From assembly GCF_002854065.1 (NCBI RefSeq), contig NZ_CP024154.1: 64,000 nucleotides of DNA; one strand, written 5' to 3'. Made by a program: the position numbers. This document shows, piece after piece, positions 57,001 to 63,000 of this stretch (positions are counted from its first letter, which is position 1; every line of letters begins with the position of its first letter). Origin of the DNA: Escherichia coli (GTDB taxonomy: Bacteria; Pseudomonadota; Gammaproteobacteria; Enterobacterales; Enterobacteriaceae).

Positions 57001-60000
57001 TTTGAACTCGTCACAAAAATAGATATAGATATACATAAAAAGAACAGGTATGCGAGTTATGATCTTAGAAGGAAAATCGAAATGCAGCATGAAGAGTTTC
57101 AGAAAATGACAGAGCGCGAGCAAGTGCCTTTATTGAAATCGCCAGAATAATAGAAACAGTACAAGTACATTGCTGTATTGTGTTTTCCTTGAATATTGAA
57201 TCGCGGTGCCCATGTACTACGATTCCTTTCGTGTTGTTTATCATTGCACACTTTCCCTGACTGAGCGTAAACACTGACTACTTTCCCCTCAAACTCCTGG
57301 ACGGCGAATGCACAATTGGTCTGTTCCAGCATAGAATATGTTACTTTTTCATGACCGAACCCGAAATATTGCGCGTCAATAAGAGACGTTGTGTAAACTC
57401 AGTCCTTTTATCTGGCAGGTTAACCCCTATCAATCTTAGGATGAAACCACGCCATCCTCTGTTTGCCTGGTTATTAATTTCATAAAGACGATTGTTTTCC
57501 TCTCGTAGTTTTGTCCACTCTAAACAAAGTGTTATATCATCCAGTTCTGTGATGTGTTTCACTTTTCCATTGACAGTTACAGTGTTTATTCCATTTCCTG
57601 TGATCATCATCTTATGCCTTTTTTATCTTCATTTGGGACCGTGCTTTTCTTCGGAGTATCACTATTCGTTAACTGCTGTTTATCAATAAAATTCCTGATG
57701 TTATCAAGTGCTTCCTTTTTTTGTCCACCTGTTATCAGGAGTGTTTATTGCCCAGAAATATTCTCCTGCTGTGCCTGCATCCTGAGCCACTTTTGTTCTA
57801 ATGTCGCCAGTCTGCGACCGGCACTCTGTGCTTCAGAGTCTGAGACCTGCCCTTTGGGGTGACCATCCAGGCCATAACGTGGGACGCCGGCGACAGCTGT
57901 CCGCTGCAGATATACGCGGCGGGATGTGATGCAGGACACTGCACAGAGCCATTCGTCCATGGTCAGTTCTGTCTCCGGGTGTTCTGCCAGAAATGCCGAA
58001 ATATCATTGTTTATGCCAATTTTCAGGGGAATAAATCCACCACCTTCAGCACGAAGATGAGGAAACAGGGCCTTTATTTTTTCCACGCACTCGTGAGTAT
58101 ACTCACGGGTCCAGTGGGAGGGACGTGGAAAACGGTGTCTTTTCTTTTTCTTCTTCCTGGCTGGCGCTTCGGGGATATGTGTTTCGACGGCAGATGAATT
58201 TATTCCGGCGGGGGCTGATTCTGCCGTCTGTTCAGTAAATACAGGTGCGATAATATCTGTTTTTTCGGATAAGGACGGTGGCGAAAAAGTACGACGTTTT
58301 TTCACCACAATGACGGGAGTTTTCCTTTCTTCCTGATTTTTTCCCATAAATACCTCGGCTGGCTGGTTTTACTCTTTAATAATATCACAATTCATAAATT
58401 AGTAAATTTCCCATCAGGTGATTTTTCATGGCTAATAAGTCCGTTCTCTGAGTATTTATACTCGAGGTAGTAACAGTTATGGCGTGACAGTCGAATTGAT
58501 ATTCTACTGAACCCTGACAGAAACATGGTTGATATATTCTCTCACTTTAATGTTGTCATGATATAAATAAAAACAATTCATTTGAAAGGATATCAGAAGA
58601 AGATATCGGGGCGCACAGTTCATCTCTGCCTTTGTTTCATGGGGTGTTCTTTGTATATTTTACTTACTGTTTAAGCATGTACATAAGGAGTGCTTTCATT
58701 ATGCCAATGATACTTGTAAAGAAGAATCCCCGGGGCAAAGTGATTCGGGAGCTTAGCAGTGAGGAAGAGACTGCAGTAAAGACGGTCTGTGGACTGAAAA
58801 AGCCAGCAACCATGGCACTACATAACCTGGCCAATGATATTCTCCGGGAAATGCGTGAGTATGATGCATGGTTACAGTGTGACTGTATTCCGGGAGATTC
58901 GCCGGCCATGAATTTTGCTGCTCTTAAAAACAATACGGGTACTCTTTATCTGTCCAGTTTTAATCATGAGCATGCACCTGAATGCCCCATGTATCGTCAG
59001 TTATCCGGAAATGAAGAGGAAACATCTTCCGGAGCAAGCCGGCATCCCGTTAGCACCCGTATAAATTACAGAAACTTTTTACCACCTGATGACAGTAATT
59101 CTGTTATCAGACTGCAGGCCCGCTCTGCTTACCATAATGGTGAGAGCTCCTCCGTTCGCAAGAAACGTCCGCGCCTTGCCCGTTTACTCCTGTCGCTTAT
59201 TGACGATGCTGGGCTGAATAAACTGGATTCCCTGGCTAATCCCCGTATCCGGACTAATTATCGTGAGTGTCTTGATGCCATACGGCAGGTTACACTGCAG
59301 CAGGAGTATATTCGGGGAAGATCCTTATCTGAAATTATCCATTTCCGGCCTGGAATGTCTGAAAGGTCTCAGGAGCGGTTAATGGAAACGCTGGAGAATT
59401 CAGAACGACACTGGCCTGCCAGAAGAAAACATATGTTCTTTCAGATTTTTATGGCGCAGCACATCTGTCGTGATGCTGTGGAAATTCACTGGGCGAACGG
59501 TAATATTCAGGTCATCAGACCTGTGCGGGGGATCAGTATTAATGGTGAAGCGCAGGGCGGAATACGTCCCCCTTACTGGGTTATTCTTGCTTTTTGCCGG
59601 AGTGCCGATGGCAGAATCATCTGCAGTGAAGGGTATGCTCATGCTCTTTATCAACTGACATGTCCGGTGCCTGTGGACAGCAAACTGGAACGAAACACGC
59701 TCACTGCTCTTCTGAATGTGGCCAGCTGGCTTAAAAGAAAGCCAGGTACGCCGGAATTAAGTCTGGAAAGGCCCCTGTTTGATACAGAAGTTTATGTTAA
59801 TGGTGAAAAGAAATATGTCCTGCCGGATTTCATTGTCACAGCAAGGGCTCCTGACGGAAAGACGGCCAGAGTGGTCATCGAAACGATGGGATATGAAGAC
59901 AGTGATTACTGCGCGAGAAAATCCAGGCAGCATACCGGCATGAAGCAGATTGGTGTTCTGCATACCGATCCACCGAAATGGCTGGATAACGATCATCCCC

Positions 60001-63000
60001 CTTTTGAGAAACATATGTACGGTGTTTTTATGCATCTCAGGTACTGAGATATTTTGTGGCTCAGTTCTGTAACTTTTCCCGTAACATTGTCTGTTGTTAC
60101 GGGAAAGTCCGGTTTTTGTATTGCACCAGAGAATACTCAGACTGTGATGCTGCCACAGCGTCAGCAGGCTTTCTGAACGGTGTAACATTACTTCATGTTA
60201 ATGATAATCACTATCATTAAGTCTTGACATGCCATTTTCTCCTTAATAAATTAATAATGTATATGTATCCATATACGTAAGCAGTTAATTCATTTGTTTT
60301 CCTCAGAGGATGAAGGAGATACCGAATGTCTGACCCTGTACGGGGTTCAGTGAGTTAGCTGGCCTGGATGTAACCACTCGTTCAACTCAATTCTCTTAGC
60401 GTGGGAAAATTTCCCTTTTCCAAGCGGACCCCTATTAATATTTGTTTTGTTTTAGGTTCTATTCAACATAGGTCATCCTAAAATACATTGAAGATAACAA
60501 GATAACAAGATAACAAGATAACAAGATAACAAGATAACAAGATAACAAGGTGTTATCTTGTTATCTCAAGGTGTTATCTTTGTTTTACTTCTGCTATCAA
60601 TCGTGATACCTCTGTTTTTGATAGTGTTTTAAGTGCTTCTACCGCCGCCCTGACAACATCAGAACGATTCACTCTGCCTTTACCTGAAACCATCTCAGCC
60701 GTTATAAGGGCATCAATGTCTTTTAGGTTTTCTTCAAAAAAAGAAATACTCACTGGTTTTGCTTTGCTTACAACCGATGATTTATCTGATGACTTTTTGG
60801 TATTATCAAGGCCAGCCGTGCCACCGTTAATAAATGCTGCCTCGTCACGAGGTGAAGTGTTTGCTCTATTTCTCACAGAATAACCTCTTTCACTAACGCT
60901 TCGATTTCTTGCTGGGCTTTATCATTTTGCGTTTCAAAAATTGTCATTGATTCGGCCCAAGCATCTCGATGTGCTTTACGATCACATACCCGGGAGTTTG
61001 CCAGATGCATTTCAGGGTAATCCTTAAGTACTTCAGCTGCCTCATTGGCTTCATTAACAAACATATTTGTGGGCGTCATGTTTAAAACGAGATATCCCCG
61101 AACATCCTCATTAAAATCTTTTGCTGCTGTAAAAACGGAGCATGTATGAGGCACAACATCCAGGTCCATCTGAGATGGGCGCAAAGGAGAAATGAATACA
61201 TCTGCGGCCATCAATCCACTACGCATTTCTGCGCTATCACGGCCAGCACAGTCTGCAATAACAAAATCATAGGATTTTTCGTGTTCCTTTAACATGGCTT
61301 TGATGTTACCTGTCGCGCCTGTAACCGGAATATGAGGGAGATCTTCAGGGCGATTGTTGTACCAGGTTAATACTGATTTCTGGTCATCTGCGTCGACAAT
61401 AATCACTCTATTGCCTAGTGACATCAGATACGCAGCTATAGATACCGCCAGTGTACTTTTACCTACCCCACCCTTTTGACTACCTAATACTATTATCATT
61501 ATAGCCTCATATTAAGCTGTTAAGTTAACAACTTAATATTGCCATCTGAACGCGAATCATGCAATTATTTTTGTTATGTTAACAACTTAGCAAGTTGTTA
61601 AGTATTTGATTTATAGATTAATTAAGATAACAAGATAACAAGATAACAAGATAACAAGATAACAAGATAACAAGATAACAGGATAACAGGATAACAATAT
61701 TATGGGTGGATTACATATTCATAACTGGGCTACTGGCAAATCTGTCCATCTGGTGGTATACGCAGGAGAAAGCATTTCCCGTTTCATTTGCCATTCAGGG
61801 GCGGTTCCTCGCCCCGCAAACCACACTTTCCCTTTTCCCGACTGGTTCAGTTCATCGAGTGTTTTCATTAACTTTTCACTGTTTTTACGGGGCTGGATTT
61901 CATCAAATAATCCCGGCTGCGCTATACCCGATGGTGTGAAATCAGCCAGCATGACACCTGCCTTCATATAGCGGTACCCTTCACGCCAGACATGGTTTAA
62001 CGCTCTGCATGCTGCGGCAATAATGTCCCGGCTGTCCTGTGTGGGCAATGGAAGCTTTTCCACAGCGGCATTGCTGTAACAGGGTTCTTTTACTGCAAAG
62101 GGGGATGTCCGTACAAATGTCGTCACCTGCCGGCAATACTGACGCTCCCCACGTAGTTTCTCTGCGGCCCGCTCTGCATACTGAACAACAGCCTGGTGCA
62201 TGGCATCTTTGTCTGTGATTCGTTCACCAAAACTGCGACTACAGACAATCTGCTGTTTTGCCGGCGGTGCTTCTTCCAGAGATATGCAGGACTCGCCGTT
62301 GAGTTCGCGTACCGTACGCTCAAGAATGACGCTGAAGTTTTTCCGGATGAATGCCGTGTTAGCCTGCGCCAGCTGCAGTGCTGTGTTAATACCCAGCGCA
62401 TTCAGCTTTTCCGTCAGTCTGCGTCCTACTCCCCAGACCTCACCAACTGGCTGCAACCCCAGTAGCTTCAAGATCCGATTACGGTTTTCTGCCGTCAGCG
62501 CGACCACACCGGAAAACTGTGGCCATTGCTTTGTTGCCCACTGGGCACTTTTAGCCAGCGTTTTTGTAGGCGCAATGCCCACCCCCATGGTGAGTCCTGT
62601 CCAGCTCTTTACCTGTTCCCTGAGCTGATGACCAAAAATCTCCGGAGAGATGCAATGATTTATCCCCCGCAAATCAATGAACATTTCATCAATTGAGTAG
62701 GGCTCAACTGCGGGAGAAAGCGACTCCAGAACAGCCATAACCCGTTGGCTCATGCTGTGGTACAGCGCATAATTGCTGGAAAATACATGTATTTTCTTCT
62801 CCAGGCGCATTTGTCTCACCTGAAACCAGGGCTGCCCCATTCTGATGCCAAGGGCTTTTGCCTCCGGGCTGCGCGCGATCACACAGCCATCGTTATTGCT
62901 GAGTACGATGACCGGTTCGTTGCGAAGGTCCGGGCGGAAAACTTTTTCACATGAGGCGTAGAAACTGTTGATATCAGCCAGTGCAAACATCAGCGTAACT

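Follow-up and report, generated by a model that had tools for sequence, protein, structure and literature searches.

The gene yagA occupies positions 58701–60047 on the + strand of the window, as the whole 64,000-nucleotide (nt) stretch of Escherichia coli plasmid contig NZ_CP024154.1 (assembly GCF_002854065.1) is called here. Its product YagA more probably than not has an active site of the Bax1 type and is a catalytically active nuclease, a reading to which we give a probability of roughly 55%. On sequence comparison, the closest nuclease family is Bax1/DUF790, and not TnsA, to which an earlier note on this DNA had likened the protein. The features of the gene and its product are as follows.

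58685–58690, + strand: Shine-Dalgarno-like AAGGAG, 10 nt upstream of the ATG at 58701, read directly from the sequence
58701–60047, + strand: yagA coding sequence, 448 amino acids (aa) and stop codon, with the RefSeq start, where the N-termini of homologs also align
58878–58985, + strand: putative zinc motif C60-x-C62-x28-H91-x3-C95, recognized by its conservation and by the same motif described for DUF1173
59433–59672, + strand: predicted beta-rich middle domain of seven strands, residues ~245–324, possibly similar to the oligonucleotide/oligosaccharide-binding (OB) fold
59673–60044, + strand: predicted PD-(D/E)xK (restriction-endonuclease-like) domain, Bax1/DUF790-like, residues ~325–448
59811–59891, + strand: peptide K371–G397, predicted beta2-turn-beta3 hairpin (strands 377–382 and 388–395) with PD376 and E394-T-M396
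59688–59690, 59826–59828, 59880–59882, and 59919–59921, + strand: codons of the key residues E330, D376, E394, and K407, respectively
60074–60117, + strand: putative intrinsic-terminator-like hairpin (60074–60107) and T-run, a 13-pair stem followed by TCCGGTTTTT, found by consensus scan

Predicted structure and active site

The AlphaFold2 model of YagA was computed from a 72-sequence alignment and has a mean predicted local distance difference test score of 89.7 and a predicted template modelling (TM) score of 0.84. It consists of an N-terminal alpha/beta domain with the CxC...Hx3C motif (residues 1–100), disordered linkers at 102–107 and 138–148, a helical segment at 158–233, the beta-rich middle domain, and a C-terminal unit (325–448) with the topology alpha-beta-(hairpin)-beta-beta-alpha-beta-alpha. 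The alpha-beta-beta-beta-alpha-beta core of the PD-(D/E)xK superfamily (Pfam clan CL0236) is present in this unit, and the domain very probably has the PD-(D/E)xK fold. D376 lies at the start of beta2 and E394 at the end of beta3, and the hairpin is followed by a conserved helix with Y403 and K407, a strand, and the last helix. The earlier note had quoted the peptide KYVLPDFIVTARAPDGKTARVVIETMG as a nuclease-like motif at the C-terminal end of the protein; the motif is there, but it spans residues 371–397 of 448 and is not terminal. The structure scores against YagA were 6.8 for Bax1 (6p4w_B), 6.6 for VC1899, 6.0 for the Fusellovirus D212 nuclease, 5.9 for Can2, 5.8 for NgoMIV, 5.7 for Hjc, 5.2 for EcoRI, 5.1 for the Vsr-like NGO0050 and I-Bth0305I, 5.0 for Bse634I, BpuSI, and TnsA (1t0f_A), and 4.9 for VRR-NUC.

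In the 72-sequence alignment, W57, C60, C62, H91, and C95 are the (near-)invariant columns of the N-terminal part, and S327, E330, R331, K357, P358, P375, D376, F377, E394, G397, Y403, K407, and M414 those of the C-terminal part. The N-terminal Cys/His cluster noticed earlier is made up specifically of C60, C62, and H91, invariant among the 72 homologs, and C95 (95%); among 167 full-length homologs H91 is present in 167, C60 and C62 in 164 each, and C95 in 163. Judged by this conservation, the four residues probably bind zinc. In the same set of 167, E330 is found in all, D376 of the 'PD' at the start of beta2 (P375-D376) in 164, E394 of beta3 in 163, and Y403 and K407 in 164 each. Position 357, at the end of beta1 and next to the invariant P358, is always basic, with Lys in 156 and Arg in 11 homologs. 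YagA of I-complex plasmids has Arg at this codon (59769–59771), and the 10 other homologs with Arg include a clade of ~50% identity.

Profile searches had been proposed as a check in the earlier note. When all PDB sequences were searched with the hidden Markov model (HMM) of the family, five matches were found, all of them Bax1 chains (E 0.0054–0.12). No significant match was obtained with the single YagA sequence in Pfam, NCBIfam, PADLOC, PHROGs, or PDB. The pattern common to the family and Bax1 is PDF...IE(T/I)(M/A)G(Y/F)...Y...K, where the family side reads crPDFilrv....kktvviEtMGyedeeYlerKar and the AfBax1 side begins afIPDFAVN. According to the reported chain positions, D376, E394, Y403, and K407 of YagA align with D305, E318, Y327, and K331 of AfBax1. 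Among the 72 homologs themselves, DUF790 (PF05626) was matched by 8 at E<=1e-3 and by 34 at E<=0.1.

In AfBax1, E275, D305, and E318 form a metal site that superposes on the acidic triad of VRR-NUC; the D305A substitution nearly eliminates cutting by the nuclease domain, and D301A, the equivalent of D305A, kills the activity of SsXPB-Bax1 (DuPrez et al., PMC7293015). The HMM alignment stops short of the E330 region of YagA. In the model, the invariant E330 stands at the N-terminal end of the domain's first helix, and from this position we infer that it is the topological counterpart of AfBax1 E275. The residue two positions after the Bax1 glutamate is Ala or Val in three Bax1 orthologs (Ala in AfBax1) and Met in YagA. 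A beta3 lysine is not obligatory in the PD-(D/E)xK superfamily, because active members such as Bax1 lack one. Bax1 is an archaeal, XPB-associated, structure-specific nuclease, and YagA matches the E/D/E motifs of its metal site, subject to the E330 mapping, but has neither the XPB helicase partner nor the N-terminal and Cas2-like domain architecture of Bax1.

In the mechanism proposed for YagA, E330 of the first helix, D376 at the start of beta2 ('PDF'), and E394 of beta3 ('IETMG') would bind Mg2+. K407 and Y403 of the following helix would replace the missing ExK lysine, as would the equivalent Y...K in Bax1, and K/R357 possibly also stands in for the beta3 lysine. By analogy with Bax1, Hjc, and VRR-NUC, the protein would cut DNA in a structure-dependent manner at single-strand/double-strand junctions, forks, and flaps, while the zinc domain and the beta-rich domain would supply recognition of DNA or single-stranded DNA (ssDNA). 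That the substrate is structure-specific DNA is a tentative proposal, drawn from these nucleases.

Several points weigh against an active nuclease of the Bax1 type. The canonical ExK lysine is absent, as position 396 is Met in 155 of the 167 homologs and Lys in one, and this plasmid lineage carries Arg357 in place of the prevailing Lys. The convergence of E330, D376, E394, and K407 on one site is drawn from predicted topology and alignment. With the single sequence, hints at residues 365–415 stayed below threshold (Pfam DUF790, independent E 0.4; NCBIfam restr_BPTD_3080, E 0.066). In its only published analysis, the related DUF1173 was judged to be without a conserved active-site signature (PMC3045609), the searched literature holds no biochemical or phenotypic data for any member of the YagA family, and no consensus sigma-70 promoter was found in a promoter scan upstream of yagA on the + strand.

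The loss of the lysine would also fit a domain that is catalytically dead. YagA would then be a DNA-binding, scaffold, or regulatory protein, which for example binds a plasmid DNA structure and leaves it uncut, and the two transposon studies of yagA-bearing plasmids, as searched, report no toxicity on overexpression and no maintenance phenotype of yagA. We regard this explanation as rather unlikely. It is difficult to account for the near-invariance of E330, D376, E394, Y403, and K407 unless there is a metal or phosphate site, and the lysine-less E-x-(A/V)-G signature occurs also in Bax1, an active nuclease whose nuclease domain needs the aligned Asp in order to cut.

Relation to TnsA

The earlier note had seen in YagA the same TnsA-like core as in the protein encoded at 9699–11285 on the – strand of the window. 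This protein of 528 aa is an unusual fusion of a helix-turn-helix of the sigma-70 region-4 type (residues ~130–200) with a genuine TnsA_N domain, supported by NF033179 (E 2.4e-12) and by PF08722 on its homologs. Its helix-turn-helix gave many matches to RpoH, RpoS, and RpoD models and a weak match to MzaA, and the combination of PF08722 and PF04545 is also present in homologs from Xanthomonas and from metagenomes.

The two proteins were compared in two ways. BLASTP gave nothing significant, and hhalign revealed a remote similarity of the C-terminal alignments with a probability of 51–68% and E of 5e-5 to 1.5e-4 (best run 68%, E 4.8e-5, 63 columns). The control with the N-terminal alignment of YagA gave 0.1%, and ten column-shuffled C-terminal alignments gave 0.1–0.6%, with scores of 11–17 against 33–34 for the real ones. 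PVDS327xxE330 of YagA is paired with YES..E, P375-D376-F with PDL, and I-E394-T-M with M-E-V-K, so that Met396 stands where the catalytic Lys of the TnsA-domain protein sits. By this alignment, YagA is independently mapped to a canonical E...PD...ExK core. The eye of the earlier reader was right in this respect, and as far as such alignments tell, both proteins share a hairpin of the PD...ExK type with similarity at the superfamily level. What did not hold is the idea of a common nuclease theme on the plasmid. Two PD-(D/E)xK proteins are no evidence of a theme, because the fold is extremely common and diverse (PMC3045609) and the proteins belong to different families.

The TnsA label failed as well, though the PD-(D/E)xK core to which it was attached stands. 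If YagA were a TnsA-type transposition endonuclease or a remnant of a Tn7-like element, it should resemble TnsA, the endonuclease of Tn7, which has an E-D-K triad with a beta3 Lys and a C-terminal domain of its own. YagA lacks both. The TnsA_N profiles PF08722 and NF033179 did not match YagA in Pfam and NCBIfam searches but do match the protein at 9699–11285, the equivalent of TnsA K132 is absent, and Bax1, Hjc, NgoMIV, and others outscore TnsA in structure comparison. Neither TnsB- or TnsC-type genes nor transposon ends turned up around yagA in the window or at 30 homolog loci, which were taken from annotated plasmids, metagenomic contigs, and 15 genome loci, and yagA has a fixed backbone position in I-complex plasmids. 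This explanation is effectively refuted.

Other small nucleases are also different in build. Hjc/Hje, VRR-NUC, and Vsr-like/DUF559 proteins are single-domain proteins with canonical ExK (Hjc, VRR-NUC) or His-based (Vsr) chemistry, and no sequence-level match of YagA to any of them was found.

Relation to DUF1173

The fold and the zinc motif of YagA had been catalogued before. DUF1173 (PF06666) was described as a family of bacterial proteins of ~400 residues with a C-terminal PD-(D/E)xK-related domain, an N-terminal CysXCysXnHisX3-5Cys putative zinc motif, and DUF790 and DUF1064 as the closest profile matches (Laganeckas, Margelevicius, and Venclovas, Nucleic Acids Research, online 2010; PMC3045609). 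Proteins of DUF1173 and of Pfam PF27227 ('Endonuc-like_C'), of ~400–450 aa, have the same length and architecture as YagA, with the CxCxnHx3-5C motif and the C-terminal domain. In UniProt, YagA homologs of 41% and 53% identity are labelled 'DUF1173 family protein', precomputed annotation places YagA and its distant homologs in PF27227, a newer Pfam family, and Foldseek gave full-length matches (TM score 0.66–0.78) to many DUF1173 proteins of Alpha-, Beta-, and Gammaproteobacteria. The PF06666 HMM matched none of the 72 homologs at E<=1e-3 and four of them at E<=0.1; YagA and the other 68 missed the latter threshold. Judged by these profiles, YagA is a sister branch, not a core member of DUF1173.

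UniProt lists a fragment of yagA as 'Uncharacterized protein in cib 5' region' (P04481), an entry that goes back to the ColIb-P9 era. When the literature was searched for studies on the function of plasmid yagA, DUF1173, or PF27227, papers with sequence descriptions and the 2010 prediction were all that was found. YagA is a member of a catalogued, experimentally untouched family in a very well-known superfamily. Added here is the alignment of single YagA residues with the site of Bax1, which argues that the site is conserved, not lost, at least in the YagA branch. In contrast to the missing signature described for DUF1173, the acidic triad is near-invariant in this branch.

The yagA gene and its distribution

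The open reading frame (ORF) of 471 codons at 58632–60047 (+ strand), described in the earlier note, exists with a TTG start and contains the quoted peptide. Its start had been considered ambiguous, and this can be settled. RefSeq annotates 'yagA: protein YagA' (WP_001132022.1, 448 aa) from the ATG at 58701, AAGGAG precedes this codon, homologs of 27–58% identity have the N-terminus M-x-L-V-x-K-(K)-N-P-R-G in common, and the 23 extra residues read from the TTG are not conserved among homologs. Based on these signals, the true start is predicted at ATG 58701, not at TTG 58632. The terminator-like hairpin begins 27 nt past the stop codon, and no RNA families were found at 54000–64000 in an Rfam scan.

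When 1.84 billion cluster representatives were scanned exhaustively with HMMER, 530 homologs were found at E<=1e-3 and 254 at E<=1e-10, many of them full-length (400–460 aa) with 20–58% identity. The conservation of the ORF is far beyond chance, and yagA is practically certain to be a real gene. By tblastn it was found in 1451 plasmid records of PLSDB, including 253 matches with less than 60% identity from Enterobacter, Serratia, Rhizobium, Sphingobium, and others, and many IncI1 plasmids carry 100% identical copies. A 2.3-kb stretch around the ORF matches 3005 plasmid records, mostly conjugative plasmids of Escherichia, Klebsiella, Salmonella, and Shigella. The gene is a backbone gene of I-complex plasmids (incompatibility groups IncI1, IncK, and IncB/O/Z). 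Two I-complex alleles differ by 6 synonymous and 9 non-synonymous substitutions, and the dN/dS ratio of 0.43 is uninformative.

Gene neighbourhood

Upstream of yagA, in this order, are a toxin-antitoxin pair of the relE/parE type, an IS1 insertion sequence, a small ORF, and a FinO-domain gene on the – strand. Downstream are the terminator-like hairpin, an 8-bp repeat array, a small gene and parA on the – strand, impB/umuC, impA/umuD, and impC. In I-complex plasmids, this segment forms the replication-proximal part of the backbone. The adjoining FinO-domain gene had been pointed out in the earlier note and was borne out by the NCBIfam matches.

57745–58347, – strand: FinO-domain gene FopA/YafB (PMC7491321), with FinO/ProQ NCBIfam matches
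56094–56791, – strand: IS1-type insertion (InsA- and InsB-like ORFs), between the RelE/ParE pair and the yafA-fopA-yagA block

The RelE/ParE toxin-antitoxin pair lies at 55427–55986. In other I-complex plasmids, the position of IS1 is occupied by an element of the IS66 family. At 60491–60566, a perfect tandem array of the 8-bp unit AAGATAAC (7.4 repeats) runs directly into two copies in inverted orientation (TGTTATCT). The array is close to the 3' side of the small gene at 60574–60876 (– strand), itself located after parA at 60873–61499 (– strand). The small gene and parA share protein accessions with parAB of pMS7163B, the active partition system of that plasmid according to transposon-directed insertion-site sequencing (PMC10286972). 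The array looks like a centromere-like site of parAB.

When ORFs were clustered over the 30 homolog loci, UmuC and a tyrosine recombinase were neighbours in 11 loci each, ParA in 9, its small partner and UmuD in 7 each, and RepE/Rep3 and FinO-domain proteins in 6 each, the last in four independent lineages. The 15 genome loci were found with 13 closer YagA sequences and are mostly from Enterobacterales, so these counts are not phylogenetically independent. No fixed partner gene of yagA was found across the 30 loci.

FinO/ProQ genes near YagA homologs lie at 5130–5666 in locus L009, 3007–3540 in L002, and 11513–11872 in L024, in addition to the gene in the window. One could suppose that YagA is a partner of FopA, the FinO-domain RNA chaperone, and takes part in replication control, for example by cutting RNA or R-loops. 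The FinO genes are situated 0.3–3.4 kb from the YagA homologs in the four lineages (window/L001, L009, L002, and L024) and in three arrangements, either divergent from the homolog or on its strand, upstream in some cases and downstream in others. Most homolog loci, however, have no FinO gene, and YagA homologs are also found beside RepE/Rep3 replicons without one. The main ligand of FopA is Inc RNA, and its distribution tracks the Inc/repZ antisense replicon (PMC7491321). The linkage therefore probably reflects the shared proximity of both genes to antisense-RNA-controlled replicons and not a functional pair, and joint action with FopA is very improbable.

Some loci have a different surrounding. 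In Serratia (L010), the YagA homolog is among leading-region genes (methylase, antirestriction, ParB-N). On a conjugative element from a metagenome (L007), a gene for ssDNA-binding protein (SSB) at 1036–1458 overlaps a distant YagA homolog at 1446–2732 by 13 nt, and the neighbours are a relaxase/TraI gene, a Fic gene, and a FRG-domain gene. The overlap suggests that SSB and the homolog are co-translated in one operon, and the arrangement hints that the homolog may be connected with ssDNA. In locus L004 (1–13578), a homolog with 32% identity lies between an operon of DUF6361 and a large helicase, with a GIY-YIG gene, and a gene for an AAA_13/SMC_N ATPase; this single neighbourhood is similar to a defence island.

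Dispensability of yagA

The gene is dispensable for plasmid maintenance and transfer under laboratory conditions. On pESBL, Hp4 (40146–41492, 1347 bp) follows directly after YafA/Hp2 and the 603-bp Hp3 (FopA) and is yagA; it was scored 1.00 for non-essential, 0.00 for maintenance, and 0.00 for transfer (PMC4288162). The same YagA accession is present on pMS7163B, whose replication and maintenance required nothing beyond the replicon and parAB (PMC10286972). A role in plasmid maintenance, as suggested in the earlier note, is contradicted by these transposon-saturation data. Natural copies of the gene are often interrupted, by ISEcp1-blaCTX-M-55 in p628-CTXM (PMC4541600) and in another case by an ampicillin cassette, and ~20% of the plasmid matches in tblastn are partial or disrupted. 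Several homologs on chromosomes or contigs are split into two overlapping ORFs, at 1554–3015 in L022, 96–1146 in L023, and 3789–5004 in L028; this fits frameshifted or decayed copies and frequent natural loss. Because of the interruptions, partial copies, split homologs, and dispensability under transposon saturation, yagA is considered an accessory gene.

Dispensability in naive laboratory hosts would also be expected of a conditional function, and YagA could be an active nuclease in conflict, either in defence, anti-defence, or plasmid competition, where it would cut the incoming DNA of phages or rival plasmids, or in the establishment in a new host. The leading-region neighbours in Serratia, the overlap with SSB, and the DUF6361, helicase, and AAA_13 neighbours point in this direction. 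On the other hand, no defence model of PADLOC-DB v2 matched YagA (0 families at E<=1), PHROGs gave no match either, and there is no conserved partner, sensor, or immunity gene. Defence genes are not among the commonest neighbours, which are rep, par, res, and umuDC, and the phage-type conversion by IncI1 plasmids was tentatively attributed to ibfA in the one paper touching on it. A role in conflict seems quite unlikely.

Possible function and significance

The accessory gene yagA stands alone in the replication/partition/UmuDC block of conjugative plasmids, and neither replication nor segregation nor conjugation needs it in the laboratory. Candidate purposes are the repair or processing of intermediates of plasmid replication or conjugation, and a conflict function. 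It is conceivable, though unlikely, that YagA and its DUF1173-like relatives form an uncharacterised class of nucleases borne on plasmids and integrative and conjugative elements, in which a zinc module, an OB-like ssDNA module, and a lysine-less core of the Bax1 type would act on single-stranded or forked intermediates of conjugation or replication or on rival incoming DNA. Should this be true, thousands of clinical resistance plasmids would carry a bacterial counterpart of an archaeal repair nuclease, one that works independently of a helicase.

The present value is mainly in the corrected annotation and in concrete residues to mutate. IncI1, IncK, and IncB/O/Z plasmids are major carriers of extended-spectrum beta-lactamase and AmpC genes, with yagA in their backbone, and yagA is a common landing site of ISEcp1-blaCTX-M. 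An active YagA would be a tractable bacterial model for the lysine-less PD-(D/E)xK site of the Bax1 type, and if it is also structure-specific, conjugative plasmids would supply their hosts with a further means of processing DNA.

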